NCBI GenBank assembly: GCA_943359595.1
Contig: CALRIA010000001.1
Coordinates: forward strand, 11,654 to 75,653
Reading direction: 5' to 3'
Length of the DNA stretch: 64,000 nt
From: Candidatus Magasanikiibacteriota bacterium
Lineage (GTDB): Bacteria > Patescibacteriota > Patescibacteriia > Magasanikbacterales > GWA2-37-8
Every line of letters begins with the position of its first letter. Position 1 is the stretch's first letter. Shown in pieces: positions 20,328 to 54,479 of the stretch. The translations under genes were made by a program, and so were the position numbers. The notes below the pieces were generated by a model. The model had not been told where the DNA came from, searched no databases, and worked only from the letters and a program-made list of their open reading frames with translations.

Positions 20328-20331
20328 TTTG

Positions 20332-20360: not shown

Positions 20361-20394
20361 TTGTAGGTATAAAAATTATATCTTACTATAAATT

Positions 20395-23251: not shown

Positions 23252-23300
23252 ATAATTCATTGTATATAGGATTATTTTGGTAAGTTGTAAAATTTTTTTT

Positions 23301-24329: not shown

Positions 24330-24337
24330 ATGGAATA

Positions 24338-27724: not shown

Positions 27725-27764
27725 TTGACACCTGTTGACACCTAATGATACTTGATGATATACT
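27725..27764 (+). promoter_or_regulatory. Promoter region with tandem direct repeats (2x TTGACACC, 2x ATGATACT-like)
   Basis: ttgacacc-tg-ttgacacc-ta-atgatact-tg-atgatatact. The second TTGACA, an 18-nt spacer and TATACT form a sigma-70-like promoter. This is the only sizeable intergenic gap inside the supercluster. Confidence 0.45.
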
Positions 27765-27790
27765 ATCTACATAATAGTTATTATTGTAAT

Positions 27791-28036
27791 ATGCTTGAGA
27801 TAAACCCAAACGAAGTTTATACACCAGTTGAAACTGAAAAATTATTAAAAATAAGCAAGAGCACAGTAAAACGCCTAATCAAGACGGGGTTGTTAAAGGC
27901 AAATAAAATTGGGAAACAATATCGCATTATGGGGCACAGTTTGCTTAAGATGCTTTCAGAAGATTTAGATAAAAGTGCAACCGATGTCTACCAAAAGATT
28001 AAGATAGATGCTATTCAAAAAACAAAGAATTGGTAA
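27791..28036 (+). CDS. Small HTH DNA-binding protein (excisionase-family HTH_17)
   Basis: LLKISKSTVKRLIKTGLLKANKIGKQYRI is a classic excisionase/MerR-type HTH. The ORF is open from 27752; ATG 27791 is preferred (81 aa). Confidence 0.6.
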   Translation: MLEINPNEVYTPVETEKLLKISKSTVKRLIKTGLLKANKIGKQYRIMGHSLLKMLSEDLDKSATDVYQKIKIDAIQKTKNW

Positions 28037-31869: not shown

Positions 31870-32664
31870 ATGAAAACTATAATTTTATGTGGCGGGACAG
31901 GTACTCGTATGAAAGAGGAAACAGAATTTAGACCAAAACCATTGGTACAGGTTGGAGATATGCCGATTATTTGGCATATCATGAAAATTTATGCTCACTA
32001 TGGGTATAATGATTTCATATTGGCGCTAGGGTATAAGGGAAGTATGATTAAAGATCATTTTTTAAATTGGAGAAATTTTTTAAGTGATTTTACAGTTAAT
32101 ACAAAAACTAATGAAATTACTTACCATAATAATGGTTGTGATGAATTTAAAATTACTTTTGTGGAAACTGGTGCAGATAGTTTGACTGGTGAACGCATTA
32201 GACGTTGTAAAAAATATTTGGATGATGATCAAGAAAATTTTATGGTTACTTATGGCGATGGTGTTGGAGATGTAGATATTAAAAGTTTGGTTGATTTTCA
32301 CAATAATCAAAATACAGTCGGCACTATTACTGGTGTACGTCCAAGCAACCGTTTTGGATTTTTGAATATCGATGAAACGACTAAAAAAGCTAAGGATTTC
32401 TATCAACACAAAATAACCATAAATGAAGCGGCAGAACAAGCCAAAGACCACGTTAATGGTGGATTTATGGTTTTTAAAAAAGAAGCCATTGATTTGATTC
32501 CTGAAAATAGTATGATTGAAAGTATATTCGCTCCATTGGCAGAAAAAGGGGAGATCTCTGTTTATGCCCATCCAGGTAAATGGAAGTGTATGGATACACA
32601 TAAAGAAGTTGAGGAATTAAACGAGTTGTGGATAAAGGATCCATTTTGGAAAACTTGGAATTAA
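31870..32664 (+). CDS. rfbF: Glucose-1-phosphate cytidylyltransferase
   Basis: MKTIILCGGTGTRMKEETEFRPKPLVQVGDMPIIWHIMKIYAHYGYNDFILALGYKG closely follows RfbF/DdhA. Length 264 aa. Confidence 0.9.
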   Translation: MKTIILCGGTGTRMKEETEFRPKPLVQVGDMPIIWHIMKIYAHYGYNDFILALGYKGSMIKDHFLNWRNFLSDFTVNTKTNEITYHNNGCDEFKITFVETGADSLTGERIRRCKKYLDDDQENFMVTYGDGVGDVDIKSLVDFHNNQNTVGTITGVRPSNRFGFLNIDETTKKAKDFYQHKITINEAAEQAKDHVNGGFMVFKKEAIDLIPENSMIESIFAPLAEKGEISVYAHPGKWKCMDTHKEVEELNELWIKDPFWKTWN

Positions 32665-33641
32665 ATTTATTTTACCATATGTCAAATTTATCTAATAAAA
32701 ATATTTTTGTTACTGGCGCCACCGGATTGGTCGGTTCGCACTTGGTGGAAAAATTACTGGAGTTAAAACCTAACAAAATCATTTGTTTATGCCGAAGCAA
32801 AGATCCTTCTTCTTTATTTTATCTAAATCAAACAGATTCACAAGTTGTTTCTGTGTATGGTGATTTAAAAGATAAAGAAAGAATTTTTGATTTAGTTTCA
32901 AAATATGAAATAAATTATATTTTTCATGTTGCCGCTCAGCCAATTGTTCCGACTGCGCTAATTAATCCTTATGAAACTTTAAATACTAATATCATGGGGA
33001 CAGTGAATGTTTTAGAGGCAGCAAGATTGTCACCTTGTATACAAGGTGTTGTGGTGGCATCTAGCGATAAAGCATATGGAAAAGATTGTTTAATGGCAAA
33101 GGAAAGTCATTCCTTGGCAGGGGACCATCCTTATGATGTCTCAAAATCTTGTACTGACCTAATATCACAAACTTATGCTAAAACTTATAATCTGCCAGTA
33201 GCTATAAGTAGGTTCGGTAATATTTACGGAGCAGGAGATTTAAATTTTAATCGAATTATTCCAGGAATAATGAAAGCGGTTGCTGAAAATTCAGTTTTAA
33301 AAATAAGAAGTAATGGACAATTTAAACGTGATTATGTTTACGTTAAAGATGTAGTAGATGGTTATATCTGTCTAGCTGAAAATATAGACAAGATTAAAGG
33401 AGAGGCTTTTAATTTTAGTTCTGGCCAGAATTATTCTGTTATTAATTTAATAGAAAAAATTTCTGAAATTACTAATGTCAAAGTAAAATACGAAATTGTT
33501 AATAATCAGGTAAATGAAATACCTGAACAGAGTTTGAATTTTGAAAAAGCAGAGAATATGCTGGGGTGGAAATCAAAGTTTAATTTTGATCAAGGGATGT
33601 TAGAAACTTTTGAGTGGTATAAAAATCACTTATCTAAATAA
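32628..33641 (+). CDS. rfbG: CDP-glucose 4,6-dehydratase-like SDR
   Basis: NIFVTGATGLVGSHLVEKL, FHVAAQPIV, NIMGTVNVLEA, SSDKAYG, YDVSKSCTDL. Sits directly after rfbF. Alternative non-overlapping start ATG 32679. Confidence 0.7.
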   Translation: MDKGSILENLELNLFYHMSNLSNKNIFVTGATGLVGSHLVEKLLELKPNKIICLCRSKDPSSLFYLNQTDSQVVSVYGDLKDKERIFDLVSKYEINYIFHVAAQPIVPTALINPYETLNTNIMGTVNVLEAARLSPCIQGVVVASSDKAYGKDCLMAKESHSLAGDHPYDVSKSCTDLISQTYAKTYNLPVAISRFGNIYGAGDLNFNRIIPGIMKAVAENSVLKIRSNGQFKRDYVYVKDVVDGYICLAENIDKIKGEAFNFSSGQNYSVINLIEKISEITNVKVKYEIVNNQVNEIPEQSLNFEKAENMLGWKSKFNFDQGMLETFEWYKNHLSK

Positions 33642-33645
33642 TAAT

Positions 33646-34455
33646 ATGGATTCAGCTGGGTTGGCTCTTGAGGCCAAGAAAATTCGTAAAAATATCTTAA
33701 AGATGATTGCAAAAACAAAAAGTTCACACGTTGGATCTTGCTTTAGTATCGTCGATATTTTAACAGTTTTATATAAAAATATTTTATCAATTTCAGATCC
33801 AAATGATCCAAACCGTGATATTTTTATATTGAGCAAAGGCCATGCTGTAGTCGCTCTATATTCTATTTTATTATCTTGTAATATTGTAGGACAAGAAATA
33901 GTGGAAACTTATGCTCAAGACGGGTCAAAACTAGCAGGGCACGCAATTCTTGGTTCCGTACCTGGGATAGAAGCAACCGCAGGTTCTCTTGGGCATGGTT
34001 TGTCATTGGTTGCCGGCTTGGCTTTGGCTAATAAGGGAAATGCAAGGAGTTTTTATTGTTTGCTCGGTGACGGTGAGTGTAATGAAGGGGCTGTTTGGGA
34101 AGCGGCTTCATTTTGTGGGCATTTTAAATTAAATAAAGTTATTGCGATAATTGATTGTAATAAACAACAAGGTCTAGGATACACAGACGATGTTATGAAC
34201 ATGAATAATATGGCAGAGCGTTGGAATGCTTTTGGTTGGGAAGCGATTGAAGTTGACGGTCATAATTATGATGATCTACAGAAAACTTTATTGTATAGTC
34301 ATAGTAATCGTGATTCTCTGAAGCCGTTGGCGATTATCGCACACACCATTAAAGGAAAAGGGGTTTCTTGGATGGAGGATAAACTTGAGTGGCATTATAA
34401 ATCACCAAATGAAGCCCAGCTGGATTTAGCTATTAATGAAATCGATGCTGTATGA
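33646..34455 (+). CDS. Transketolase N-terminal subunit (ThDP-binding half of a split transketolase)
   Basis: SHVGSCFSIVDILTVLY, GHA...LGSVPGIEATAGSLGHGLS, and GDGECNEGAVWEAASFCGHFKLNKVIAIIDCNKQQ (ThDP GDG...N motif). The ORF is open from 33610; ATG 33646 is preferred. Confidence 0.85.
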   Translation: MDSAGLALEAKKIRKNILKMIAKTKSSHVGSCFSIVDILTVLYKNILSISDPNDPNRDIFILSKGHAVVALYSILLSCNIVGQEIVETYAQDGSKLAGHAILGSVPGIEATAGSLGHGLSLVAGLALANKGNARSFYCLLGDGECNEGAVWEAASFCGHFKLNKVIAIIDCNKQQGLGYTDDVMNMNNMAERWNAFGWEAIEVDGHNYDDLQKTLLYSHSNRDSLKPLAIIAHTIKGKGVSWMEDKLEWHYKSPNEAQLDLAINEIDAV

Positions 34456-35369
34456 GGAATGCTATTATTAATGCAATCCATGCCGCCGCTCAAAAAAACA
34501 AAGATATAGTTTTTATAACTGGCGATTTAGGGTATTCTGTTATTGAACAGTTCCAAACAGAGTTACCAAACCAGTTTATTAATGCAGGCATTGCAGAACA
34601 AAATATGATTGGCGTTGCCGCAGGATTGGCTTTGGCAGGTAAGAAAGTTTTTGTATATAGTATTGTACCTTTTGTTACAATGCGTTGTTTTGAACAGATT
34701 AGAATTGATGTTTGTTATCAAAATTTAGATGTGACGTTGATTGGGGTTGGGGGTGGTTTTGCTTACGGTACTCTTGGTACGACCCACTTTGGTCTTGAAG
34801 ATTTGGCGTTGATGCGATCGTTGCCGAATATGAAAATAATAGCACCAGCTGATTCACTTGAGGCCACTAGTTTATTTGAAGAATTAATTAAAATTAATGG
34901 TCCGTGGTATATTAGATTAAATCGTGGTGGCGAAAAAGATATTACCAAACATGCTCTAGTACCGAAGGTTGGTATGGGTTCTGTTTTAAAAGTTGGCTCT
35001 AAGGTAACAATATTCTCAATTGGTGCTATTACAGAAGTTGCACTTGAAGCCGCCACTTTTCTTGAAAAAGATGGAATAGAGACAGAGGTCATTCATCTGC
35101 ACACCCTCAAGCCTCTTGATATTGAAATAATCAAAAATCGCATTGATAAACGAAAGGTCATAGTGACGATTGAGGAGCATACTGTTAATGGTGGGTTAGG
35201 TTCTGCAGTAGCGGAAGTAATCGCAGAAAATTCCATAGCAGTTTCGTTCTGCCGGTTAGGTGTAAATGATGAGTATTTATCTTTTGTTGGTAAGCAAGAT
35301 TTTTTACGAATGAAAGTTGGTTTGTCCGCAAATTTAGTGGCAGAAAAAATAAAAAAACTATGCAAATAA
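34452..35369 (+). CDS. Transketolase C-terminal subunit (pyrimidine-binding half)
   Basis: FINAGIAEQNMIGVAAGLALAGKKVFVYSIVPFV and GTTHFGLEDLALMRSLPNMKIIAPAD. Overlaps the N-terminal subunit gene by 4 bp. Confidence 0.85.
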   Translation: MRNAIINAIHAAAQKNKDIVFITGDLGYSVIEQFQTELPNQFINAGIAEQNMIGVAAGLALAGKKVFVYSIVPFVTMRCFEQIRIDVCYQNLDVTLIGVGGGFAYGTLGTTHFGLEDLALMRSLPNMKIIAPADSLEATSLFEELIKINGPWYIRLNRGGEKDITKHALVPKVGMGSVLKVGSKVTIFSIGAITEVALEAATFLEKDGIETEVIHLHTLKPLDIEIIKNRIDKRKVIVTIEEHTVNGGLGSAVAEVIAENSIAVSFCRLGVNDEYLSFVGKQDFLRMKVGLSANLVAEKIKKLCK

Positions 35370-36253
35370 ATAATAAAATAAAAGTGGCTATTATTGGCAC
35401 TGGCAATATAGGAAGTGACCTGTTGCTTAAGATTCAAAAATCCAACGTTATAACGTGTGGATTATTTGCTGGACGTAATGCTGATTCCGCTGGGATTAAA
35501 TTAGCCAAAGAAATTGGCGTGCCAACTTCTTTTGATTCTATCGGAGCTATAGAACAAGATCCAGATTGTTGCGAAATAGTTTTTGATGCTACCTCTGCTA
35601 AAAATCATATTGAACATGCTCCAATTTTAAAACAATTAGGAAAGTTTGTGATTGATTTGACTCCATCACGAATTGGTAAAATGTGTATTCCAGTTATCAA
35701 TGCAGAAGAAGCCCTTTGTTCTCAGAATATTAATTTGGTTACATGTGGTGGACAGGCATGTGTACCTCTAGCAAAGGTTATTATGGATACTCATCCGGAA
35801 ACTACGTATATTGAAATTGTTGGAAGTATTGCTTCAAAATCTGCCGGCGCTGGAACACGTGCTAATATTGAAGAGTATATGCAGACAACCAAGCAGGCTT
35901 TAGAAAAATTTTCCGGCGTTCCGGAAGCCAAAGTTATTTTAGTTTTCAATCCAGCTGAGCCGCCTGTTTTAATGCATAATACTATTTATGCTAGTATTGC
36001 TAACCCTAATATACAGTTGCTAAAAGAAAATATTGAGAAGATGGCGGAGCTTATAAGGAGCTATGTACCTGGTTATAGAATAACATATGGACCAATAGTT
36101 GATCGGGGAAGAGTGGTTATTACTGTACAAGTGATAGGAAGTGGAGATTTTTTGCCTTTCTATGCTGGCAATTTAGATATTATAACATGTGCGGCAGTAC
36201 AAATGGCCGAAGATTTTGCTAAGAAATCTTTAAAGAATAAATTATATGAATAA
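35360..36253 (+). CDS. Acetaldehyde dehydrogenase (acetylating), DmpF/MhpF family
   Basis: KVAIIGTGNIGSDLLLKI, IVFDATSAKNH, NLVTCGGQACVPL, IASKSAGAGTRANIEEY, LVFNPAEPPVLMHNTIYA, YVPGYR and FYAGNLDIITCAA align along the full length with MhpF. Confidence 0.85.
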   Translation: MQINNKIKVAIIGTGNIGSDLLLKIQKSNVITCGLFAGRNADSAGIKLAKEIGVPTSFDSIGAIEQDPDCCEIVFDATSAKNHIEHAPILKQLGKFVIDLTPSRIGKMCIPVINAEEALCSQNINLVTCGGQACVPLAKVIMDTHPETTYIEIVGSIASKSAGAGTRANIEEYMQTTKQALEKFSGVPEAKVILVFNPAEPPVLMHNTIYASIANPNIQLLKENIEKMAELIRSYVPGYRITYGPIVDRGRVVITVQVIGSGDFLPFYAGNLDIITCAAVQMAEDFAKKSLKNKLYE

Positions 36254-37268
36254 TATCAGATTTTTTGATTCAACTTTACGAGATGGTTCTCATGCTGTTT
36301 CACATAAAATTAGTGCTGAACAAATTCGTGAATATTGTGAAAATATAGATGGAGCTGGATTGTATACGGTTATAGTTGGTCATGGAAATGGGATTGGAGC
36401 CTCGTCTCATCAGGTAGGGTTTTCAGCTGTTAGCGATTTTGAAACTATTTCTATTGCTAAGCAAGCATTAAAAAAAACGCGTTTAGGTATATTTTTTATT
36501 CCTGGATTCGCTACTATTAAAGATGACTTAGAACCAGCGATTAAATTAGGTGTGGATTTGGTATGTGTAGCATCACATTGTACAGAAGCCGATACAACAG
36601 AACAATATATTCGTTATTTGAACACATGTGGTAAAGAGGTCTATGGAGTTTTGATGATGTATCATATGACCACTAAAGAGAGGTTGTTGGAGGAAGCAAT
36701 TAAGATGCAATCATACGGGGCACAAGGTGTAATTATTATGGATTCCGCTGGTGCCTCAATCCCATTATTAGTTTCAGATACAATAAAACATTTAGTTAAA
36801 AATTTGAAAATACCAGTAGGTTTTCATGCTCATAATAATTTGGGAATGGCTGTCGCCAATTCGCTTATAGCACTTGAAAATGGGGCGACAATTATCGACG
36901 GAACTCTGCGTGGATTTGGTGCTGGCGCTGGTAATTGTCAAATAGAAGCTGTTGTTACTGTTTTAAAAAAAATGAATATTGATGCTGGAATAGATTTATA
37001 CAAATTGATGGATGTAAGTGATAATGTTGTAACAAAAATAATGAAAAAGCCACAAGAAATTGATTCAATTGGTTTGATGGGAGGTCTGACTGGAGTATTT
37101 TCAGTTTATGCTTTACCTATTAAACGTGCAGCTGAAAAATATAATGTAGATGCTAGAGATATTTATGTTGAAGTTGGAAAAAGAAAAATAGTCGGTGGAC
37201 AAGAAGATATGATCGTCGAGGTAGCAATAGAATTAGCAAAGAAAAAACAATTATCTAATATTAATTAA
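36246..37268 (+). CDS. 4-hydroxy-2-oxovalerate aldolase-like (DmpG/MhpE family, DRE-TIM)
   Basis: FDSTLRDGSHAVSHKIS, VGHGNG, ASHCTEAD, LMMYHMTT, MDSAGA, GFHAHNNLGMAVANSL, GAGAGNCQIE. The C-terminal channelling domain VEVGKRKIVGGQEDMIVEVAIELAKKK is nearly identical in pattern to MhpE. Confidence 0.85.
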   Translation: MNNIRFFDSTLRDGSHAVSHKISAEQIREYCENIDGAGLYTVIVGHGNGIGASSHQVGFSAVSDFETISIAKQALKKTRLGIFFIPGFATIKDDLEPAIKLGVDLVCVASHCTEADTTEQYIRYLNTCGKEVYGVLMMYHMTTKERLLEEAIKMQSYGAQGVIIMDSAGASIPLLVSDTIKHLVKNLKIPVGFHAHNNLGMAVANSLIALENGATIIDGTLRGFGAGAGNCQIEAVVTVLKKMNIDAGIDLYKLMDVSDNVVTKIMKKPQEIDSIGLMGGLTGVFSVYALPIKRAAEKYNVDARDIYVEVGKRKIVGGQEDMIVEVAIELAKKKQLSNIN

Positions 37269-37272
37269 TATT

Positions 37273-39054
37273 ATGAATGTTGCAGAATATATTATTAAAT
37301 TTTTATCAGAAAAAGGCACTGACCAAGTGTTCATGGTGTCTGGTGGACAGGCAATGTATCTGATAGATGCTATTTATAAGAATGGCAAATTTAATGTTGT
37401 TTGTACTCACCATGAACAAACAACTGGCATGTCTGCTGATGCCTATGGAAGAATTTCTGGAAAACCGGCAATTGCGCTTGTCACAGCCGGTCCGGGGGCA
37501 GTTAATGTTATAAATGGTGTTGTTGGTGGTTGGACCGATTCGTCACCAATGATTGTTCTTTCCGGTCAATCCAATTTAGCCAATATAAAATATCAGGAGA
37601 AAAGTGGTATTAGACAATATGGTGTACAAGGTATAAATGTTAAACCACTGGTTGAAAGTGTGACCAAATTTTTTATAACCGTTGATGACCCGGCTAAAAT
37701 TTTGACTTATTTAGAAACTGCTTATTACTTATGTACCAATGGGCGTCCTGGTCCGGTTTGGATTGACGTTCCTTTGGATATTCAAAGATCCGAAGTTCCA
37801 GGAAATTTAGTATCGGAATTCAAAATTCCTGCAAAGATAAACGTTGATACAAATATTTTTAGCCAAGTAGATCTGGTTGTTAAAATGTTGGCTTGTTCAA
37901 AAAGACCTGTTTTGTTGGTCGGGCAGGGTGTTAGATTGGCTGGAGCTACTCTAGAATTTAACAATCTTATTTCAAAATTAAAAATTCCTATATTAACCGC
38001 TCGTCTTGGTATAGATTTAATTGAAAGTGATAACGATCTCTATATTGGACGACCAGGAACTTATGGAGAAAGATCCGCACATTTTGTAATACAAAATTCT
38101 GATTTGTTAATATCCGTTGGTTGTCGTTTGACAACGTCTTTGATCGGTCATAATGCAAAAGATTTTGCCAGAAATGCAAAAAAAATAGTGGTAGATATTG
38201 ACCAAGCGGAATTGGATAAACCAGGATTAGAAATTGATTTAAAAATTTTAACTGACGCAAAAATTTTTCTCAAATCTTTGTTTGAAAAATCAATTAATTT
38301 TGAGTCTTTAAATTTTGATTCATGGCTGGACAGATGTCGTGCTTGGAAGATCAAATATCCAGTTGTTCAACCGTCATATAAGAATGAAACACCAGTTAAT
38401 TCTTATTATTTCGCTGATAGACTTTCAATTTTATCTAGTTCTAAAGAAATGATATTGGTTGACACGGGCTCTTGTTTTCATGTGGCTAGTCAAACTTGGA
38501 AAATTAAAAAAGGTCAGCGATTTCTTACTACTGGCGGCCTCTCTTCAATGGGATATTGGGTGGCTGGTATCGGCGCATGCCGGGCCAACAACGGACAGAA
38601 AACGATTGTGATCACTGGAGATGGTAGTTTGCAGATGAACATTCAAGAATTTGCAACTATCAAACACAATAATTTGCCAATTAAAGTTTTTATTTTTAAT
38701 AATAACGGTTATTTGTTGATTAGACATACACAGAAGAATTTTATGGAGGGTCGGTTGCTTGGTGAAGGTCCTAAATCTGGTGTATGGTGTCCAGACTCAC
38801 TTAAAATTGCCGAGGCGTATGGCATAAAGGGTGTGAGGATAGATAAAGTTGCTGATGTGGATAAAAAAATAGAAGAGGTTTTAAATTATGATGGCCCAGT
38901 TATTTGTGATGTTATGACACCGGAATGGCAGTTATTAATGCCTCGAGTAGCATCAGAAAAAGATGCTAACGGTAATCTTGTCTCAAAACCATACGAAGAT
39001 ATGTTTCCTTATTTAGATCGTGATGAACTGGAAAAAAATATGATTAAGGATTAA
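37273..39054 (+). CDS. ThDP-dependent acetolactate-synthase-like enzyme (YerE-like candidate branching enzyme)
   Basis: 593 aa. N-terminal GTDQVFMVSGGQAMYLIDAIY...CTHHEQTTGMSADAYGRISGKPAIALVTAGPGAVNVINGVVGGWTDSSPMIVLSGQ. C-terminal ThDP motif ITGDGSLQMNIQEF...IFNNNGY. Confidence 0.85.
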   Translation: MNVAEYIIKFLSEKGTDQVFMVSGGQAMYLIDAIYKNGKFNVVCTHHEQTTGMSADAYGRISGKPAIALVTAGPGAVNVINGVVGGWTDSSPMIVLSGQSNLANIKYQEKSGIRQYGVQGINVKPLVESVTKFFITVDDPAKILTYLETAYYLCTNGRPGPVWIDVPLDIQRSEVPGNLVSEFKIPAKINVDTNIFSQVDLVVKMLACSKRPVLLVGQGVRLAGATLEFNNLISKLKIPILTARLGIDLIESDNDLYIGRPGTYGERSAHFVIQNSDLLISVGCRLTTSLIGHNAKDFARNAKKIVVDIDQAELDKPGLEIDLKILTDAKIFLKSLFEKSINFESLNFDSWLDRCRAWKIKYPVVQPSYKNETPVNSYYFADRLSILSSSKEMILVDTGSCFHVASQTWKIKKGQRFLTTGGLSSMGYWVAGIGACRANNGQKTIVITGDGSLQMNIQEFATIKHNNLPIKVFIFNNNGYLLIRHTQKNFMEGRLLGEGPKSGVWCPDSLKIAEAYGIKGVRIDKVADVDKKIEEVLNYDGPVICDVMTPEWQLLMPRVASEKDANGNLVSKPYEDMFPYLDRDELEKNMIKD

Positions 39055-39067
39055 TACTTTTATAGTT

Positions 39068-39970
39068 TTGATAATAAATAAAAATATGCAAAAAATTAAA
39101 GTTTTTTTAACGGGCGGAGGAGGCTTTATTGGTCGGAATATTTTAGAATTATTAAATGATAAATATTTTTTTCTTTCGCCTAGCAGCAATGAATTGGATC
39201 TAACAAATGCAGATTCAGTTCTAAATTTTATTAAAGAAAATAATGTAGATATTGTTTTGCATGCCGCCAATGTGGGAGGAAATAGAAATCCTAAATGGGC
39301 AGGTGTGGATTGGGCTTTGGAAAAAAATTTACAAATGTTTTTTAATTTAATTAGGTCCAAGGATTATTTTAAAAGAATGATAGTGCTTGGGTCTGGAGCA
39401 GAATATGATAAAAGACAAAATCTGGTTGGAATAAAAGAGGAAGATTTTGACAAATCGATGCCTGTTGATCAGTATGGTTTTGCAAAATATATAATGTCTA
39501 AATATGCACAAAATGTTGATTTCATAACGCATTTACGTTTGTTTGGGGTGTATGGTAAATATGAAGATTATAAAATTAGATTTATTTCTGAGGCAATCTG
39601 CAGAGCTATTTTAAATAAGCCAATAGTAATAAAACAAAATGTAAATTTTGATTACATATACATCAATGATGTGGTTGAAGTCATTGATGGTTTTATTAGT
39701 AATAAACCAACCAATAACTTTTTTAATGTAGGGCGTGGGACTACGATAGATCTTCTTTCAATTGCCAATAAAGTACTGTCTTTAACTGGAAAGAATCTAC
39801 CGATTATTGTAGAAAATCCTACATTAAATAAAGAATATTCATGCAACGTTGATAGGTTGTCAGAGGAGATTGGCGAGTATCCTATTACTGGTTTTGATCA
39901 GTCGTTGGTAGATATGATTACTTATTATCAATCTGTGTTGGTAAAATTAGATACTAGCTTTATATCTTAG
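39068..39970 (+). CDS. NAD(P)-dependent SDR epimerase/reductase (candidate CDP-4-keto-sugar reductase, YerF/RfbJ-like)
   Basis: KVFLTGGGGFIGRNILELL Rossmann motif, YGFAKYIMSKY (Y-x3-K); 300 aa. Confidence 0.6.
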   Translation: MIINKNMQKIKVFLTGGGGFIGRNILELLNDKYFFLSPSSNELDLTNADSVLNFIKENNVDIVLHAANVGGNRNPKWAGVDWALEKNLQMFFNLIRSKDYFKRMIVLGSGAEYDKRQNLVGIKEEDFDKSMPVDQYGFAKYIMSKYAQNVDFITHLRLFGVYGKYEDYKIRFISEAICRAILNKPIVIKQNVNFDYIYINDVVEVIDGFISNKPTNNFFNVGRGTTIDLLSIANKVLSLTGKNLPIIVENPTLNKEYSCNVDRLSEEIGEYPITGFDQSLVDMITYYQSVLVKLDTSFIS

Positions 39971-39999
39971 GGTATTAATTTTTTAGCTGTGTAGTATAT

Positions 40000-42777
40000 A
40001 TGTCATTAAATGAGTTAAAACTATTTAGCAACGATGCTATCGCATTTTTAAAGAAAAATATATTAGGAATTTTTTTGTCCTCATTTGTTATTTTTTCCGT
40101 TATTTGGTTAGGAAATATAATATCAGTTATTACTAGTCGTCAAATTTTGGATCCGTTGTCAGTAAAGGTAGAAGGGTTGGATGCACAAAATTTATCTTCT
40201 ATTAGAGTTTTGGCAACCTTGTCGCGTGCTGGCAATACTATGAATTTAACGAGGGTGTTGGAAGGAAATAAAAATGAATGGGATAACCCTAGTCAAACAT
40301 TTGTTAAAAAAATACTAGTTGGTTTTAATAATGGAAGTTTAAGTCAACTTTCGCAAATTACCGTTACTCTTGGACAGAGAGATTTTGTATATACAAAAAA
40401 ACAATTTTTGGATAATTGGAATAAAATAAATAAAAAAGATGATAGTTGGTATATGAGCGGTATAAATGACAGTTCTGGATATTTTGTATATGAAGCACCT
40501 GATAATATAAAAGTGAAACCATGGAATTTACGCGCACCAATCATTTCTAGTTTGTTATCTAGTATAAATTTCAGAGGCAGTGAATACTTAGTCTACGCTC
40601 CATTGGTCTCTAGTTTTAAAACTTTTTTGTTGGTGTTTGTAATTTTTATAGTTATTTTTTTCATTTTTTCATATTTTTGGCGTAAACATAATAAGGTATA
40701 TAACGATAATAATGATTTTTATAAAATTGAATTTATTACTTTTACTTTAGGAATTTTAGCTACTTCAGGTTCTATATTTTTGTTGTGTGTTTGTATTAAG
40801 TTTTTTTATAGGCCTGACACATCTAAAATAGTATTTGAAGCATCTAAAATTTATTTAGATAAACTTCTGCCGGCTTTTATACCTAAACCAGTGGAAAGAT
40901 TACAATTTGCACTGAGCGTATTATCAAGCCCTTTTTTATTATTTACTTTTTATAAATTATTTAGTAAATACATAAATACACTTAGTAAAGAAATAATTCC
41001 TCGTGTCTATTCAATTATAAGCACGATAGTTTTGTTGTTACTTTTTTCTGTTACTTATATAGGATTATCCGTTAGTAATTTTATGTATGTTGAGAAGAGC
41101 TATTTTTTTAATGGTGTAGGAAAATATTTATATAGTTTAGTTTTGTTTCCGTTAGGTGTTTATATTATTTTTTCATTAAAAAAAGAAAAATATTATAATT
41201 TAATTAATATTTTATTATATATATTTTCAGGAGTTTTATTAATGTCGATGTTTTTTGTTAGTATTATTGGCGTTGGTGAATCTAATTTAGATATGCTAAG
41301 TATCGTTAGCCACGCTAATCCAATTTTTTTTCCAATTTCACAAGTTGTGGCAGGCAAGACTTTGTTGGTAAATTTATCTAGTCAGTACGGTCTTTATCCA
41401 GTGTTTTTAGAGCCTATATTCAAGCTGTTTGGTTTAAACATGTTATCCCTTACATCTACAATGGGGGTATTATTAAGTTTAAGTTTTTTATTTATCTTTC
41501 TTTTTATTCATCGTTTAGTAAAAAATAAAATAATTTTGTTTCTTGGTTTTAGTACCATTATGTTTTATTTTTTGGATGGTTCTGCCAGTCCATATCCATA
41601 TTTTCAATATTGGCCAATTAGGACTTTGTTCCCATCTATACTTTTATTTCTTTCTTCTTTATATTTTAAAAGTAAAAATAAATTTCTTTATTATCTATTA
41701 TTTTTTATAAGTGCTTTAGCCATTTTATGGAATTTTGATTCTGGAATTATAGTGTTTTCTTCCTGGATAATAGCTTTGTTTTATATGGAAATGTTTAAGT
41801 CTGACATAAAAATTATTATTAGAAATATAATTTTCCATGTTATCCGTGGGGCATTAGCTATTTGCCTAGTTTCATCAGGGTATGTTGTTTATTCTTTTTT
41901 GAGATCTGGTCAGATGCCGAATTTATCTTTGTTTTTCTTGTATCAAAAATTATTTTACGATGGTTTTATGATGATTGCCATGCCTTTTCCTCACATTTGG
42001 ATTCTCATAATGTTGATTTTTCTCTCTGGGTTGCTATGGTCAATTAGAAATTTGATTATTAAAGATGATAATTATAAAAATATTTCTATTTTTCTCTTAT
42101 CTATTTTAGGTATTGGTCTTTTTAGCTATTATGAAGGTAGGTCTCATGATGCTACCTTGTATACTCCACTATATTTGGTTTTAATGCTTTTGCCAATAAT
42201 GGCGGACAATATTTTTGATATTCTTGTAAAGAATTCTAAATTATACGGGCATACTTTATTATTTTTATTTATTATTTTTATTCTTTTTGCGTCTCCTTTA
42301 AGTATTATTCACAACAGTCATAGATACTTCAGTTCAGTTAAAGCTGGTTTTAATTCTTTTTCTAATCATTCAGAAACAACGTTGTCAAATAATGTCAATT
42401 TTATAAAAAGAAATACTAAGGAATGGGAAGGTGTAATAATGTTGACAGGACCATTTGACGGTGCATATTTTGGAGAAACTCACACGCGTTCGATATTGGA
42501 CATACCATCATTTACGGAAGTATTTTATAAACGAGAGGCGGATTATATTATTAATTTTTTAAGGTGTAATAAAACGGTCAAAGTGTTTGTGTATCCTTTT
42601 AGTAAATTTTATGATCAATTTGGGAATGATCTTGTTGATATAAGGATTAATCAATTAATAAAAAGTAATTATTCAGTGGTGACAGAAAGCGGTGATGATA
42701 TGGTTGTGATGATGAATAATTATAATAATTCTGGGGGTTGTTTTTATACCAATATTAGTAAATTAATTATTAAATAA
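40000..42777 (+). CDS. Large polytopic membrane protein (925 aa), candidate GT-C-type glycosyltransferase or polymerase
   Basis: N-terminal TM + ~170-aa loop, then >14 TM helices and a ~150-aa C-terminal soluble domain. No recognisable catalytic motif. Embedded in the sugar cluster. Confidence 0.6.
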   Translation: MSLNELKLFSNDAIAFLKKNILGIFLSSFVIFSVIWLGNIISVITSRQILDPLSVKVEGLDAQNLSSIRVLATLSRAGNTMNLTRVLEGNKNEWDNPSQTFVKKILVGFNNGSLSQLSQITVTLGQRDFVYTKKQFLDNWNKINKKDDSWYMSGINDSSGYFVYEAPDNIKVKPWNLRAPIISSLLSSINFRGSEYLVYAPLVSSFKTFLLVFVIFIVIFFIFSYFWRKHNKVYNDNNDFYKIEFITFTLGILATSGSIFLLCVCIKFFYRPDTSKIVFEASKIYLDKLLPAFIPKPVERLQFALSVLSSPFLLFTFYKLFSKYINTLSKEIIPRVYSIISTIVLLLLFSVTYIGLSVSNFMYVEKSYFFNGVGKYLYSLVLFPLGVYIIFSLKKEKYYNLINILLYIFSGVLLMSMFFVSIIGVGESNLDMLSIVSHANPIFFPISQVVAGKTLLVNLSSQYGLYPVFLEPIFKLFGLNMLSLTSTMGVLLSLSFLFIFLFIHRLVKNKIILFLGFSTIMFYFLDGSASPYPYFQYWPIRTLFPSILLFLSSLYFKSKNKFLYYLLFFISALAILWNFDSGIIVFSSWIIALFYMEMFKSDIKIIIRNIIFHVIRGALAICLVSSGYVVYSFLRSGQMPNLSLFFLYQKLFYDGFMMIAMPFPHIWILIMLIFLSGLLWSIRNLIIKDDNYKNISIFLLSILGIGLFSYYEGRSHDATLYTPLYLVLMLLPIMADNIFDILVKNSKLYGHTLLFLFIIFILFASPLSIIHNSHRYFSSVKAGFNSFSNHSETTLSNNVNFIKRNTKEWEGVIMLTGPFDGAYFGETHTRSILDIPSFTEVFYKREADYIINFLRCNKTVKVFVYPFSKFYDQFGNDLVDIRINQLIKSNYSVVTESGDDMVVMMNNYNNSGGCFYTNISKLIIK

Positions 42778-42795
42778 TTCATTAATTAAATCTAT

Positions 42796-44106
42796 ATGAT
42801 AGATGAAAATCTTAGAGCCGAAATAATAAAATACTATAATTTAAAATTTCCTCAGAAAAAATTTGAGCCTGGTATTTCCAGCGTGCTTGTCACTGGGAAG
42901 GTATTTGATGAAAATGAAATGTTAAAAATGGTGGAAGCAGTATTAGATGGTTGGTGGACAGAGGGCCATTTTAGTGATGAATTCGAAAGAAAATTAGCTC
43001 ATTGGTTAGGTATTAATTTTGTGGCTTTGACCAATTCAGGTTCGTCGGCAAATCTATTGGCGGTTACTGCTTTAACCTCAAAGAAGTTGGGTGATAAAAG
43101 ATTAAAAGCGGGAGATGAGGTAATAACTGTGGCTGCTGGTTTTCCTAGCACAGTTAATCCGATTATTCAGAATAATTTAATCCCAGTTTTTGTAGATGTA
43201 GAATTAGGTACATATAATGCTAGTGTAGATGAGATTAAAAAAGCGATTAGTCCTAAGACTCGTGCAATTATGATCGCGCATACTTTGGGTAATCCTTTTG
43301 ATTTGGAACAGATTAAAAAATTATGTATTGATCATAATTTGTGGCTAATAGAAGATAACTGTGATGCTTTAGGTTCTTTATATAATGGAAAAAAGACTGG
43401 GACATTTGGTCATATCGCTACTTGTAGTTTTTACCCAGCCCATCATATCACTATGGGTGAAGGAGGCGCTGTATTTACTAACGACGCTACACTAAATTCT
43501 ATTGTAAGGTCGGTACGAGATTGGGGAAGAGATTGTTATTGTAAGACAGGAGCGGATAATACTTGTGGCATGCGTTTTGGTTGGCAATTAGGTGATTTGC
43601 CTTATGGCTATGATCATAAATATATTTATTCAGAAATGGGATATAATTTAAAAATAACTGAAATGCAGGCTGCTTTGGCTGTGGCACAATTTGATAAATT
43701 GGATGGATTTGTTGAAAAACGTCGCGCTAATTTTAACAAACTTTTTGAAGGATTAAAAAAATATGAAGAATATTTTATATTGCCAATGTGGCAAACTCAA
43801 GCTGAACCAAGTTGGTTTGGTTTCCTTTTAACTGTGAGAGAAGGTGCTCCTTTTGAGCGTAATGATATTATCCAATATTTGTTGAGTCAGAATATCCATA
43901 CCCGCTATTTATTCGCTGGCAATTTAACGAAACAACCATATTTTGTCGATAATGATATTAATTATAAGATATCAGGAGAACTTAAAAATACAGATTTGAT
44001 AATGGATAATACTTTTTGGATAGGAGTATTTCCAGGTCTCAATGATGAAATGGTTGAATATACAATAAGTTGTTTCGATAAATTTTTGGAAGTATATAAA
44101 AAATAG
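42796..44106 (+). CDS. rfbH: CDP-6-deoxy-D-xylo-4-hexulose-3-dehydrase (E1; DegT/DnrJ/EryC1 fold, PMP-dependent)
   Basis: 436 aa, DegT-family fold. The position normally holding the PLP-binding Lys carries His instead (SFYPAHHITMGEGG), which is the diagnostic feature of E1/DdhC. Same cluster as rfbF/rfbG. Confidence 0.8.
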   Translation: MIDENLRAEIIKYYNLKFPQKKFEPGISSVLVTGKVFDENEMLKMVEAVLDGWWTEGHFSDEFERKLAHWLGINFVALTNSGSSANLLAVTALTSKKLGDKRLKAGDEVITVAAGFPSTVNPIIQNNLIPVFVDVELGTYNASVDEIKKAISPKTRAIMIAHTLGNPFDLEQIKKLCIDHNLWLIEDNCDALGSLYNGKKTGTFGHIATCSFYPAHHITMGEGGAVFTNDATLNSIVRSVRDWGRDCYCKTGADNTCGMRFGWQLGDLPYGYDHKYIYSEMGYNLKITEMQAALAVAQFDKLDGFVEKRRANFNKLFEGLKKYEEYFILPMWQTQAEPSWFGFLLTVREGAPFERNDIIQYLLSQNIHTRYLFAGNLTKQPYFVDNDINYKISGELKNTDLIMDNTFWIGVFPGLNDEMVEYTISCFDKFLEVYKK

Positions 44107-44116
44107 TTATTATATT

Positions 44117-45055
44117 ATGAATAATAAATTAATTAGCATTGTTACCCCTTGTTATAATGAGGAGGAAAACGTTGTTGAGGTTTATAATCAGACGAAAAAA
44201 ATATTGGTAGAATCTGGATATAAATATGAACATATATTTATTGATAATGATTCCTCAGATAAGACGGTCGTAATCTTAAAAGAAATAGCTGAGAATGATA
44301 AATGCGTAAAGATAATCGTTAATGCTCGTAATTTTGGACAATTAAAGTCTCCTTATTATGCAATTTTACAAACAAAAGGGGACGCAGTAATTTTGCTTTA
44401 TGCGGATTTGCAAGACCCACCTATTCTTATAAAAGATTTTATTAAAAAATGGGAAGATGGTTATAAGATAGTGGTTGGAGTAAAAAAGAAAAGCATGGAA
44501 AATCCTATAATGTTTGCAATCAGAAAATTGTATTATAGCTTAATTAAATTAATGGCTGAGACAGAACAAATTAAAAATTTTAATGGTTTTGCATTATATG
44601 ATAGACAATTTATTGAGACGATGAGAAAAATTGATGATCCAGATCCATATTTGCGAGGTTTAATTAGTGAATTTGGTTTTTCTTGTGCAAAAATTGAGTA
44701 TACTCAATTTAAGCGAAAAAATGGAAAGAGTAAAAATAATTTTTATACTCTATATGATGTGGCCATGCTCGGCTTTGTTAATCATTCCAAAGTTCCGTTG
44801 CGCCTTGCTGTTTTTATAGGCTTTGGAATGTCGATTCTTAGCTTGATTGTTGGTATGGTTTATTTGATATATAAACTGCTTTACTGGGATAGATTTCAGG
44901 CTGGGCTAGCTCCAATTACAATTGGTATTTTCTTTTTTTCCTCAGTCCAATTATTTTTTGTGGGTATTTTAGGAGAATATATTGGAGCAATTTACACTCA
45001 AGTTAAACGTCGTCCTTTGGTGGTGGAAAAAGAACGTATCAATTTTGATAAATAA
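44117..45055 (+). CDS. GT2 polyprenyl-phosphate glycosyltransferase (GtrB/ArnC-like, C-terminal TM pair)
   Basis: LISIVTPCYNEEEN...IFIDNDSSDKT, YADLQDPP (DxD region), two C-terminal TM helices. Confidence 0.8.
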   Translation: MNNKLISIVTPCYNEEENVVEVYNQTKKILVESGYKYEHIFIDNDSSDKTVVILKEIAENDKCVKIIVNARNFGQLKSPYYAILQTKGDAVILLYADLQDPPILIKDFIKKWEDGYKIVVGVKKKSMENPIMFAIRKLYYSLIKLMAETEQIKNFNGFALYDRQFIETMRKIDDPDPYLRGLISEFGFSCAKIEYTQFKRKNGKSKNNFYTLYDVAMLGFVNHSKVPLRLAVFIGFGMSILSLIVGMVYLIYKLLYWDRFQAGLAPITIGIFFFSSVQLFFVGILGEYIGAIYTQVKRRPLVVEKERINFDK

Positions 45056-46876: not shown

Positions 46877-47599
46877 ATGATATCCATTGTTATTTCAGCT
46901 TATAATTCCGACCGTCATATCAATAATTTTTTTATTCGTCTTTTAAAAGTTGCCGAAGCTCTTATTAATAAAAGTGTTAGTTTTGAAGTAATTATAGTAT
47001 TTAATAGTCCAACACAAAACGAACTTAGATCTATAAAAAAATTTGGTGGTAAGCCTTGGTTTAAATATGTTACGGTTGACAGAGAAACCGTTTTTGCTAG
47101 TTGGAATCGCGGTGTGAATATGGCCAAGGGTGAAGCCATCGCTTTTTGGAATGTTGATGATATAAGATTTGCTGACGCAATTATCGATGGTTCAGATTTA
47201 ATCAAAGCTGGTGCTGATTTAGTTTATTTCCCTTTTTACATTGTGTGGTTTTTGAAGTTTGGACCAATTTTTTTACCTGTAAAATATAAGCATATTTTGC
47301 CGCCAATATATAGCAAGAAAGAATTCACCAGGTCAATGCACTGCGGTCCATTTTTTATGATTAGTAAGGAATTTTTTAATCAAGTCGGGCTTTTTGACGA
47401 ACAATTTAATATTTCTGGTGATTTTGATTGGTGTGTAAGAGCGTCCATTAAATCTGAAAAATTTATTTTATCAAAAAAGAATGCTGGGATTTTTAGAGTT
47501 GATGGCAGTGGCTTGAGTGCTAGAACAAAAAAGAACCTTGTTGCTGAGAATAATATTGTTTGCAAGCGGTATAATATTATGGATAAAATTATCAATTAG
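46877..47599 (+). CDS. GT2-like glycosyltransferase
   Basis: MISIVISAYNSDRHI...FWNVDDIRF (DxD-like). Confidence 0.5.
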   Translation: MISIVISAYNSDRHINNFFIRLLKVAEALINKSVSFEVIIVFNSPTQNELRSIKKFGGKPWFKYVTVDRETVFASWNRGVNMAKGEAIAFWNVDDIRFADAIIDGSDLIKAGADLVYFPFYIVWFLKFGPIFLPVKYKHILPPIYSKKEFTRSMHCGPFFMISKEFFNQVGLFDEQFNISGDFDWCVRASIKSEKFILSKKNAGIFRVDGSGLSARTKKNLVAENNIVCKRYNIMDKIIN

Positions 47600-47600
47600 T

Positions 47601-48566
47601 ATGTTATTGGTTATTCTGACTAAGTCAATTCAAGGTTTTAATATTTTTTCGATTAGTGGGATTTTAGATATAATTAAACGATATGCTAGATATTGGCTAG
47701 GTAAATATCGTGGGCCACAAGCAGTAACTAGTAGTTTAATTTCAGGTCTTAAAGAGCTTAAGGTTGATTTTAAATTGAACCCTAAAACAAAAGAGATAGA
47801 TAGCAATGCGATTATATATATAAATGAAAGTGCTGAGGCGCTACGCTACGCCATTGGTTTAAAGAAACAAGGAAAAATAAATAAAATTGTTGCTGGTCCG
47901 GTTATCTCGATTTTACCTGAGACAGAAGGCGGTATTATGCTTGATCCAAATATTGATTTATTTTTAGTTCCGTCTGATTGGACTAAAGATTTCTGGTTAT
48001 CATGTGCGCCGCAGTTGGTTAATAAAATTGTGGTCTGGGCGGCAGGAATCGAGAATGTTTATGGCAACAAGAAAAAAAGAGATTTAGTTTTAGTATATTA
48101 TAAAAATGGGCCTAAAGCCCAGCTTAATTATATAGTAAATTTTTTAAAGTCAAAAAGTATTAAATGCAAGGTGGTTTATTATGGTCATTATAAAAAGAAA
48201 GATTATTATGCCATGTTAGATGATTCTTATTGTATGATTTATTTATCAGAATCAGAAAGTCAGGGGTTATCATTATGTGAATCGTGGATGCATGATGTGC
48301 CAACATTGGTGTGGAATAGGGGTTTTTGGAAGTATTGCGGTCATCAATGGTTTAATGATAAAATAAGTGCGCCATACTTAACAAATGAATGTGGCATGTT
48401 TTTTTCTGGATTAGAAGATTTTGGTATTAAATGGCAAAAATTCAATATTAAAATCAATACCTATAAATCACGAGATTACGCCCTTAAAAATTTTACTAAT
48501 AAATTATCAGCCAAAAAGTTTATTGATTTAATCAAAATATGTTTTCCAAATATTTCCTCCGTTTAA
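47601..48566 (+). CDS. GT-B/GT4-like glycosyltransferase (weak)
   Basis: C-terminal SESESQGLSLCESWMHDVPTL resembles the GT4 E-x7-E region. The ORF is open from 47517, overlapping the upstream gene; ATG 47601 is preferred. Confidence 0.4.
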   Translation: MLLVILTKSIQGFNIFSISGILDIIKRYARYWLGKYRGPQAVTSSLISGLKELKVDFKLNPKTKEIDSNAIIYINESAEALRYAIGLKKQGKINKIVAGPVISILPETEGGIMLDPNIDLFLVPSDWTKDFWLSCAPQLVNKIVVWAAGIENVYGNKKKRDLVLVYYKNGPKAQLNYIVNFLKSKSIKCKVVYYGHYKKKDYYAMLDDSYCMIYLSESESQGLSLCESWMHDVPTLVWNRGFWKYCGHQWFNDKISAPYLTNECGMFFSGLEDFGIKWQKFNIKINTYKSRDYALKNFTNKLSAKKFIDLIKICFPNISSV

Positions 48567-54452: not shown

Positions 54453-54479
54453 TAATTAATAAGGATAAAAATTTATTTT

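Follow-up and report, generated by a model that had tools for sequence, protein, structure and literature searches.

Erwiniose-type genes and a split transketolase-like pair in a bacterial glycan locus: a candidate second branching cassette for 3,6-dideoxyhexoses

In Yersinia pseudotuberculosis, the synthesis of CDP-yersiniose A depends on YerE, a thiamine diphosphate (ThDP)-dependent enzyme that acylates C-4 of CDP-4-keto-3,6-dideoxyglucose. YerE uses pyruvate and thus forms a C2 branch, which is followed by the action of a reductase, YerF. A longer branch is made in Pectobacterium atrosepticum, where Steitz et al. (2022; PMC9306805) described an erwiniose cluster encoding a YerE-like ThDP enzyme (ErwE), a reductase (ErwF), a BphI-like pyruvate aldolase (ErwI) and a BphJ-like acetaldehyde dehydrogenase (ErwJ), together with the genes for CDP-4-keto-3,6-dideoxyglucose. 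ErwE refuses pyruvate and takes instead (R)-4-hydroxy-2-oxopentanoate, which arises by aldol addition of pyruvate to acetaldehyde, giving a C4 branch. Here, we describe a gene block at positions 31870–45055 of a 64,000-nucleotide stretch of DNA (the window) from an uncultured low-GC bacterium, probably one of the Patescibacteria, in which a gene set of the erwiniose type lies beside the genes of a split, two-subunit transketolase (TK)-like enzyme. We propose, with a probability of about 0.6, that this operon makes a C-4 acyl-branched 3,6-dideoxyhexose for a surface glycan and that the TK-like pair serves as a second, alternative branching cassette.

An earlier note on this DNA had recognized most of these genes between 31870 and 44106. 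It held that DmpF/DmpG-type enzymes are known only from meta-cleavage and that no described pathway has this combination of genes. Neither statement stands, since the erwiniose cluster has both enzyme types and the combination of DmpF, DmpG, ThDP enzyme and reductase has been described there (PMC9306805). The note was right that a split TK is absent from every characterized deoxysugar pathway. The only precedents are the biosyntheses of miharamycin and amipurimycin, for which split TKs have been proposed, without demonstration, to transfer a hydroxyacetyl group to keto sugars (PMC12247030). Thus, the core pathway is already published, and the new part is the TK-like pair, an uncharacterized enzyme family.

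The open reading frames (ORFs) of the stretch from 31870 to 44106 all lie on the + strand, with overlaps or gaps of ≤31 nt, and the module runs beyond 44106 into a glycosyltransferase family 2 (GT2) gene. Domain assignments were checked with Pfam and NCBIfam, and the best solved structures were taken from comparison with the PDB. All domain calls made previously (TK_N/TK_C, DmpF, DmpG with DmpG_comm, acetolactate synthase (ALS)-like, and short-chain dehydrogenase/reductase (SDR)) were confirmed. However, seven genes rather than six lie between rfbG and rfbH, a 925-aa ORF having been overlooked. A promoter and terminator scan, otherwise indecisive, returned no intergenic terminator inside the block. 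The same block was found again on independent metagenomic contigs, the closest loci being metagenome-assembled genomes of Patescibacteria and related groups. A Leptospira rfb locus, which the low GC and the long operon on a single strand had at first suggested, was discarded in view of these closest loci. Related loci are referred to below by number. Relative to one of them, L002, dN/dS is 0.03–0.18 for all ten genes, indicative of purifying selection. Recurrence on independent contigs and purifying selection together argue that the arrangement is not due to chance. As part of the proposal above, we regard 31870–45055 as one translationally coupled operon segment.

The erwiniose-type core and its sugar precursor

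The acylating acetaldehyde dehydrogenase gene (35360–36253, + strand) is of the DmpF/BphJ/ErwJ type. Its product scores 365 bits against TIGR03215 (cutoff 282), and the catalytic cysteine motif NLVTCGGQA is conserved relative to 1NVM_B. Next comes a class II pyruvate aldolase of the DmpG/BphI/ErwI type (36246–37268, +), with HMGL-like and DmpG_comm domains and a score of 384 bits against TIGR03217 (cutoff 286). It keeps the catalytic residues of the family (Arg/Asp/His and the His-x-His metal site) and carries F83, I85 and F285 at the positions of BphI L87, L89 and Y290. The Y290 position is Phe in 72/72 aldolase homologues from sugar clusters. At the L87 position, 71 of these could be aligned; 70 carry Phe or Tyr and one carries His. 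By comparison, four solved catabolic aldolases have Leu and Tyr at the L87 and Y290 positions, respectively. In BphI, the substitution Y290F causes loss of 4S control, and variants engineered to carry Y290F plus L87W or L87N are 4R-specific (PMC3962088). On these grounds we predict that the window aldolase is specific for the 4R product, (R)-4-hydroxy-2-oxopentanoate. Phe at both positions, resembling the engineered 4R BphI, would match the enzyme to the enantiomer that ErwE requires, and it sets the sugar-cluster aldolases apart from meta-cleavage DmpG.

Just downstream lies the gene for a YerE/ErwE-like ThDP carboligase with TPP_enzyme_N/M/C domains (37273–39054, +). The best PDB match of this protein is the YerE-like enzyme JanthE (8RPH, 420 bits), compared to 255 bits for acetohydroxyacid synthase. 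It scores 368 bits against the IlvB model TIGR00118, well short of the cutoff of 538, and no ilvN or ilvC is found near its gene. A genuine IlvB, which the earlier note had named as evidence that would overturn its reading, is therefore not what we see, and none of the other contrary findings it had listed turned up. Starting 31 nt 3′ of the ThDP gene, in the YerF/ErwF position, is an extended SDR (39086–39970, +; Epimerase-family match, 1e-24), which by analogy is presumed to be the reductase of the side-chain ketone. Orthologues of this SDR come next after the branching enzyme both in L057 (51% identity) and in L005 (48%), a locus with only the TK-like pair. The view that the ALS-like protein and the SDR form a pair of the YerE/YerF type thus holds up.

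To place this gene set in context, we scanned genomes with the ThDP protein and obtained 80 loci, all with ≥46% identity; gene triads were counted among relatives with an ErwE-like protein ≥54% identical. In 58 of 59 relatives, the ErwE-like gene is immediately preceded by DmpF and DmpG genes of the same strand. RfbH-like and RfbF-like genes accompany it in 38/46 and 37/46 loci, respectively, and 43 of the 46 loci have the ErwE-like gene in the absence of a TK-like pair. Hosts of the triad include Patescibacteria, Clostridia, Omnitrophota, Elusimicrobiota, Gammaproteobacteria, Planctomycetota, Spirochaetia and Gastranaerophilales. The neighbourhood conservation and the Phe substitutions bear out the suggestion that DmpF and DmpG are dedicated to the sugar pathway rather than stray catabolic copies. 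Their presence is no puzzle, because the pair would make the ThDP donor. It had been supposed that they supply C2 units to a pyruvate-using YerE; in the erwiniose scheme, however, the C5 keto acid is itself the donor, the branch is C4, and pyruvate is rejected. These comparisons support placing the DmpF/DmpG/ErwE/SDR core of the window in the published erwiniose-type pathway.

One relative departs from this pattern. In L088, a Magasanikbacteria-like contig, an HpcH/HpaI-family aldolase gene sits between the DmpG-like aldolase and the ErwE-like gene (13340–16819 of that contig). Two aldolases before the ThDP enzyme would permit a longer or more hydroxylated branch.

Three genes of the block are assigned to the synthesis of CDP-4-keto-3,6-dideoxyglucose. 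The first (31870–32664, +) encodes a glucose-1-phosphate cytidylyltransferase-like protein of the RfbF/DdhA type. Its best family match is TIGR02623 (261 bits; cutoff 300), and it matches 1TZF with 209 bits, compared to 54 bits for the next PDB entry. By these measures, the protein is clearly a cytidylyltransferase. The second (32679–33641, +; probable start codon ATG at 32679) encodes an NDP-hexose 4,6-dehydratase of the RfbG/DdhB type (TIGR02622, 202 bits; cutoff 278). Here the distinction is narrow, with 127 bits to the CDP-glucose 4,6-dehydratase 1RKX versus 120 bits to a dTDP-type enzyme, and the CDP specificity that we infer for it rests mainly on gene context. The third (42796–44106, +) encodes CDP-6-deoxy-L-threo-D-glycero-4-hexulose-3-dehydrase (E1; RfbH/DdhC/AscC), with 698 bits against NF011936 (cutoff 423) and 558 bits against Yersinia E1 (3BCX). 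Its motif YPAHHITMGEGG is the same as in 3BCX. H216 corresponds to H220 of E1, the histidine that replaces the pyridoxal phosphate lysine, just as the earlier note had called it. Also retained are the four [2Fe-2S] cysteines (E1 C193, C251, C253 and C261), in a C-x57-C-x-C-x7-C motif. In L005 and L057, a conserved protein of 183–188 aa (49% identity), with no Pfam match, is encoded directly 5′ of RfbH; it is absent from the window.

The split transketolase-like pair

Between the RfbG-like and DmpF-like genes lie two genes for the subunits of a non-canonical split TK-like ThDP enzyme. The N subunit, with the ThDP pyrophosphate-binding (PP) domain, is encoded at 33646–34455 (+; Transketolase_N, 1e-38; 194 bits to the split TK 6YAK), and the C subunit, with Transket_pyr and Transketolase_C domains, at 34452–35369 (+). 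The pair keeps the ThDP/Mg motif, the cofactor Glu (in IAEQN) and the donor-side histidines. Among 120 homologues, N-subunit residues H28, H66, H99 and H250 are found in every sequence aligned at the position (119–120), and the aspartate of the GDG motif, D142, is invariant. His117, which is Gln in the TKs of Carboxydothermus hydrogenoformans and human, is kept in 119/120.

On the acceptor side the picture is different. The C subunit keeps R2 and R158, but one of the four phosphate-binding residues, a His, is lost: G100 occupies the site of human H416 and E. coli H461. Similarly, L108 stands in for human D424 and E. coli D469, the Asp whose contact is the C2-OH of the acceptor. The motif reads GVGGGFAYGTLGTTHF, versus THAG..GEDGASHQ in canonical enzymes, and both losses are common to all 94 relatives examined. 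Against the transketolase model NF004559 (cutoff 488), the N and C subunits score 251 and 202 bits. Judged by these residues and scores, the TK-like pair is not a metabolic transketolase.

The genomic context of the family points in the same direction. We assembled 23 dereplicated metagenomic TK-pair loci with long flanks and scored RfbF- and RfbH-like genes within 9 kb. RfbF-like genes were found in 15 loci, RfbH-like genes in 13, and one or the other in 17, so the family sits mostly in CDP-hexose loci and appears tied to CDP-hexose chemistry. An ALS-like gene was present in five of the loci and an aldolase in two, while 18 of the 23 have the TK-like pair only. With dN/dS at about 0.10, the TK genes evolve under purifying selection. 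We set aside one further line of context evidence: an SDR lies beside the TK pair in only 27 of 51 loci, a homology-limited count that is confounded by the dehydratase. A literature search for TK genes in O-antigen, CDP-sugar, spore-sugar or Coxiella contexts gave nothing relevant.

These data bear on whether the TK, DmpF and DmpG genes might be ordinary central or catabolic copies that landed in a glycan locus. Their best family matches are indeed transketolase and meta-cleavage enzymes. However, the DmpF-DmpG linkage is fixed across phyla, the aldolase carries substitutions at its stereo-determinants, none of the relatives examined has a canonical TK acceptor site, the genes overlap, and all are under purifying selection. 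Such an origin is extremely improbable, and we consider it effectively refuted.

Two further members of the family deserve mention. In Clostridium sporogenes (L089, 3982–9758), a TK-like pair with the same non-canonical motif is preceded by genes for an RfbF-like protein, a dehydratase, a C-methyltransferase and an SDR; the 16.8 kb retrieved contain no RfbH gene. This locus extends the family to a cultured Clostridium amenable to genetics. In Bacillus thuringiensis (L090, 8001–16747), the family appears in a non-sugar setting, with PEP-mutase-like, HpcH aldolase and amidohydrolase neighbours; this cluster may be for a phosphonate or another small molecule.

The most informative comparison is provided by loci that share a gene scaffold. 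L057 (Parcubacteria), L005, L087 and the window all have the arrangement Wzy-like, RfbF, RfbG, [cassette], SDR, GT2 ... RfbH. What occupies the cassette position differs: DmpF-DmpG-ErwE in L057, TKN-TKC alone in L005 and L087, and TKN-TKC-DmpF-DmpG-ErwE in the window. In the compact locus L087, the order is RfbF-RfbG-TKN-TKC-SDR-GT2-RfbH. The flanking proteins of the scaffold are 57–75% identical, except for the Wzy-like protein (42–54%) and the SDR (48–57%), and the GT2 of a TK-only locus is 75% identical to that of an ErwE-only locus. In the TK-only loci, the TK pair is the sole candidate for a C–C bond-forming enzyme, and the SDR that follows it is of the same kind as that following ErwE. 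Most simply read, these facts make the TK pair a branching enzyme for keto sugars in its own right. The steroid desmolase DesAB, reportedly a split transketolase as well, cleaves the cortisol side chain. The bond that it cuts is an α-ketol at a tertiary carbinol, and such chemistry is within reach of the fold.

The pathway that we envisage is as follows. By homology, RfbF would form CDP-glucose, RfbG would convert it to CDP-4-keto-6-deoxyglucose, and RfbH would remove the 3-hydroxyl to yield CDP-4-keto-3,6-dideoxyglucose. Following the erwiniose scheme, the DmpF-like enzyme would reduce acetyl-CoA to acetaldehyde, and the DmpG-like aldolase would join acetaldehyde to pyruvate, producing (R)-4-hydroxy-2-oxopentanoate. 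The ErwE-like enzyme would then decarboxylate this C5 acid and add the resulting 3-hydroxybutanoyl unit to the C-4 ketone, and the SDR would reduce the new side-chain ketone. The TK-like pair most likely acts as a second keto-sugar branching enzyme, that is, as a ThDP carboligase on the same keto sugar that would transfer a C2 unit, probably hydroxyacetyl; this is the least certain step. Transfer of hydroxyacetyl, via dihydroxyethyl-ThDP, is favoured because the donor histidines are retained. With the TK and ErwE cassettes sharing upstream and downstream enzymes, the cell could make both C2-branched and C4-branched sugars. Fold and topology suggest how these would leave the cytoplasm: an ArnC-like GT2 would load the sugar onto polyprenyl phosphate, and a 925-aa GT-C enzyme would transfer it outside the membrane. 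A more general claim, that the TK-like family constitutes a widespread, uncharacterized class of NDP-keto-sugar C2-branching enzymes, functional analogues of YerE that form tertiary alcohols, seems to us evenly balanced.

A different role had been suggested earlier, in which the aldolase receives its C2 units from the TK. In a broader form, the TK-like enzyme would act on small metabolites and leave the nucleotide sugar untouched, giving or recycling C2 units, whether glycolaldehyde or a modified aldehyde or keto acid, for use at the aldolase and ErwE step. The TK genes do lie directly 5′ of DmpF-DmpG and overlap, and loss of the residues equivalent to Asp469 and His461 would fit acceptors that are neither hydroxylated nor phosphorylated, such as acetaldehyde, given the behaviour of E. 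coli TK D469 variants. Yet L005, L087 and most metagenomic TK loci have RfbF, RfbG, RfbH, SDR and GT2 while lacking aldolase, DmpF and ALS-like genes, which weakens the suggestion considerably. Moreover, the product of a TK is a ketone, unusable as an acceptor by a DmpG-type aldolase, and the 43/46 ErwE-only loci need no such supply. We therefore regard precursor supply as improbable.

More serious is the possibility that the TK-like and ErwE-like enzymes act one after the other on a single sugar. A new ketone or aldehyde in the TK product, for example, could be the next acceptor, and the outcome would be a doubly C-extended or doubly branched sugar of an undescribed kind. The five genes TKN-TKC-DmpF-DmpG-ErwE form an unbroken block in the window clade (L002, L004 and L008) and also in the distant L050 (Selenomonadales) and L075 (Clostridiales). 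In both L050 and L075, two SDR genes come after ErwE, and the TK C subunit of each is the nearest neighbour of the other. Further loci, L081, L082, L084, L092 and L093, combine TK-like and ALS-like genes with no aldolase. Finally, the single scaffold GT2 of the window suggests a single final sugar. On the other hand, TK-only loci (L005, L087 and the 18/23 with long flanks) and ErwE-only loci are each self-sufficient on the same scaffold, and the 75% identity of their GT2s means that one GT2 could serve both products. A second addition beside a quaternary carbon would also be sterically demanding, and we know of no natural sugar of this type, although no search aimed at such sugars was made.

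Several findings weigh against our proposal and must be set beside it. The TK-like C subunits of ALS-containing loci tend to be each other's nearest relatives, and the five-gene block with two SDRs recurs in distant lineages; both observations fit cooperation at least as well as parallel action. In the window, one ErwF-like SDR and one scaffold GT2 would have to serve two proposed branching enzymes. We had considered that two paralogous GT2 genes might handle the two sugars, and this was ruled out, as the window has a single GT2 of the scaffold type. Neither RfbF nor RfbG reaches the cutoff of its NCBIfam equivalog model. Lastly, no gene for E3, the AscD/RfbI-type ferredoxin-NAD(P)/[2Fe-2S] flavoprotein reductase, was found in the 64-kb window. 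The gene set for CDP-4-keto-3,6-dideoxyglucose (cytidylyltransferase, 4,6-dehydratase, E1 and E3) is accordingly incomplete there.

Because there is no E3 gene, the electrons for RfbH must come from a general cellular reductase. One could instead imagine that the TK-like enzyme replaces E3, with oxidation of a ThDP-bound enamine passing electrons to the [2Fe-2S] cluster of RfbH. E3 is missing from both the window and the compact L087, and the Fe-S ligands of RfbH are kept. But related loci L005, L057 and L087 all lack a recognizable E3 gene, and L057, an ErwE-only locus that includes two small ORFs with no Pfam match, has no TK pair either. The presence of TK does not track the absence of E3, and on this basis we rejected TK as an E3 substitute. 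In addition, the TK subunits have no Fe-S or flavin domain, and TK pairs occur in loci with no RfbH, such as L089. The idea is thus highly unlikely.

Of the earlier suggestions for the TK genes, then, a second ThDP-mediated C–C bond formation is the one favoured by the evidence, while the doubly branched or longer sugar to which it was coupled survives as a less likely rival. Parallel action, yielding C2- and C4-branched sugars from one precursor, is the most economical model, because relatives get by with either cassette alone, served in each case by the SDR and GT2 that the two share in the window. We rate it somewhat above sequential action, which we consider possible though doubtful, and both well above precursor supply by TK.

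The export arm and the rest of the locus

Two genes of the block presumably deliver the sugar to the cell surface. The first, beyond the region considered earlier, encodes an ArnC/GtrB-like GT2 (44117–45055, +; Glycos_transf_2 match) with hydrophobic C-terminal segments at residues 226–257 and 262–287. Its identity to the GT2 encoded after the SDR in L005 and L057 is 66–67%, and the window has no second orthologue of that kind. From its sequence, we presume it to be a polyprenyl-phosphate sugar synthase.

The second is the overlooked 925-aa ORF (40000–42777, +), between the SDR and RfbH genes. It has no Pfam match, even in a relaxed search, and encodes a polytopic membrane protein for which AlphaFold2 predicts a GT-C fold (pLDDT 79, pTM 0.81). 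Among 5.8 billion proteins we found 30 homologues, two of them fused to a GtrA-like domain, and E299 is invariant in an alignment of 25 sequences. A relationship to the MptA/B-family protein of L005 was considered and dropped, as no similarity was found. Based on the model, the 925-aa protein is presumed to be a GT-C-fold transferase that moves the polyprenyl-phosphate-linked branched sugar to a surface acceptor, and it probably pairs with the ArnC-like GT2. GC content falls to 27% over 40001–42000, within this gene, compared to 32–38% in its neighbours, in keeping with the many Phe, Ile and Leu residues of a membrane protein.

The block belongs to a larger glycan locus on the + strand that spans 20395–63790 of the window as one long run, with ∼32% GC. 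At its head are genes for an ECF sigma factor (14283–14939), a DUF5667 protein (14944–16251), a 1261-aa protein with no Pfam match (16465–20250) and a 690-aa Wzy_C/O-antigen-ligase-like protein (20395–22467). The order of this head region (14283–22467) is the same in L005 and, as far as the large protein and the Wzy_C protein are concerned, in L088. A small ORF with the look of a helix-turn-helix/excisionase-like protein (27752–28036) lies just 5′ of a Wzx flippase gene, and the top sigma-70-like promoter match of the region falls at 27735–27764. An HTH_17 ORF likewise immediately precedes Wzx in L088; in L002, where such an ORF also lies 5′ of Wzx, a single methyltransferase gene separates the two.

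Other sugars seem to be encoded as well. Genes for GDP-mannose 4,6-dehydratase and a GDP-fucose-synthase-like SDR are found at 23277–25300, and a GT11 fucosyltransferase-family gene at 59625–60476. Given these GDP-sugar and GT11 genes, fucose or another 6-deoxyhexose is probably a further constituent of the glycan. Positions 51888–54929 cover a second route to a branched sugar. It begins with a dTDP-glucose 4,6-dehydratase-like gene (51888–52859), downstream of which is an NDP-hexose C-methyltransferase with a Zn-binding N-domain (53247–54452; Methyltransf_13/14). Small ORFs at 52849–53250 and 54480–54929 flank the C-methyltransferase gene, and one of them has a weak Polysacc_synt_C match. As a guess from sequence, they may be sugar isomerases or epimerases. 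Four more ORFs have no significant Pfam match: 11511–13262 (− strand), 47517–48566, 49842–51794 and 58342–59610. Those at 49842–51794 and 58342–59610 encode polytopic membrane proteins, each with >10 hydrophobic segments, and could be glycan polymerases or transferases.

Comparison with described systems

The export genes resemble the ArnC/ArnT and GtrB/GtrA/Gtr systems. They differ in that no known family shows detectable sequence similarity to the window GT-C protein, so that, if its modelled fold is correct, it adds a GT-C family devoid of sequence-level annotation. No separate GtrA gene was recognized in the window, and the donor would be a CDP-activated branched dideoxyhexose.

Relative to the catabolic pairs DmpFG, BphIJ and HsaFG, the window dehydrogenase and aldolase match in fold, catalytic residues, dehydrogenase Cys and communication domain, and they score above the equivalog cutoffs. 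The catabolic pairs make the 4S product, whereas the window pair is biosynthetic, is predicted to make 4R, and has sugar and glycan genes as its only neighbours. Natural Phe/Phe aldolases are candidate 4R-selective class II pyruvate aldolases, a property so far obtained by engineering.

In the case of YerE/YerF, the likeness lies in the acylation of C-4 of CDP-4-keto-3,6-dideoxyglucose by a ThDP enzyme and the reduction that follows. The YerE system has no aldolase. The window ThDP gene, in contrast, has a dedicated aldolase/dehydrogenase pair fixed beside it, which argues for a C5 keto-acid donor.

The erwiniose cluster (Pectobacterium atrosepticum SCRI1043) is closer. It has the same enzyme set and the CDP-4-keto-3,6-dideoxyglucose genes, and it follows the same logic, in which the aldolase product is the ThDP donor and a C4 branch is placed at C-4; the window is likened to it by enzyme type rather than by direct sequence comparison. 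There are several differences. No TK-like genes are reported in the paper, the gene order is not the same, and E3 is lacking in the window. The host of the erwiniose cluster is an enterobacterium, and delivery in the window, unlike that in the erwiniose cluster, appears to proceed via an ArnC-like GT2 and a GT-C enzyme. The core pathway is far more widespread than the literature shows. The acyl-branched-sugar scheme of 2022 came from three or four cultured bacteria, and dehydrogenase, 4R-aldolase and ThDP carboligase appear here as a fixed, mobile three-gene module in candidate-phyla bacteria, Clostridia, Omnitrophota, Elusimicrobiota and others. Hence, rare branched sugars may be common on the surfaces of uncultured bacteria.

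Canonical split TK, that of Carboxydothermus hydrogenoformans (6YAJ/6YAK), is the best solved-structure match of the TK-like pair, with 194 and 208 bits. Compared to canonical, human and E. coli TKs, the pair has GYSV in place of the SKST loop, and a GSLGHG motif of its own. Canonical TK serves the pentose phosphate pathway, whereas the TK-like genes of the window sit among those for nucleotide-sugar synthesis.

In function, the nearest parallels are the split TKs of Streptomyces for miharamycin and amipurimycin, likened here by description: a two-subunit TK-family enzyme in a sugar-modifying cluster, with a ketone as the proposed acceptor. According to a 2025 review, no TK-type enzyme has yet been demonstrated to form a tertiary alcohol on a keto sugar, and every candidate comes from Streptomyces. 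The TK-like family described here offers many non-actinobacterial candidates, for which the presumed acceptor, CDP-4-keto-3,6-dideoxyglucose, is well defined and enzymatically accessible. Loci with TK only, ErwE only or both on the same scaffold provide a built-in comparison. Were sequential action to prove true, the product would be a higher sugar made by two different ThDP-dependent C–C bond formations, an undescribed class of sugar and an undescribed biosynthetic logic. The Streptomyces cases all belong to secondary-metabolite clusters, none shown in vitro, whereas the family found in the window belongs to CDP-dideoxyhexose glycan loci, in Patescibacteria, Clostridia and many bacteria from the environment.

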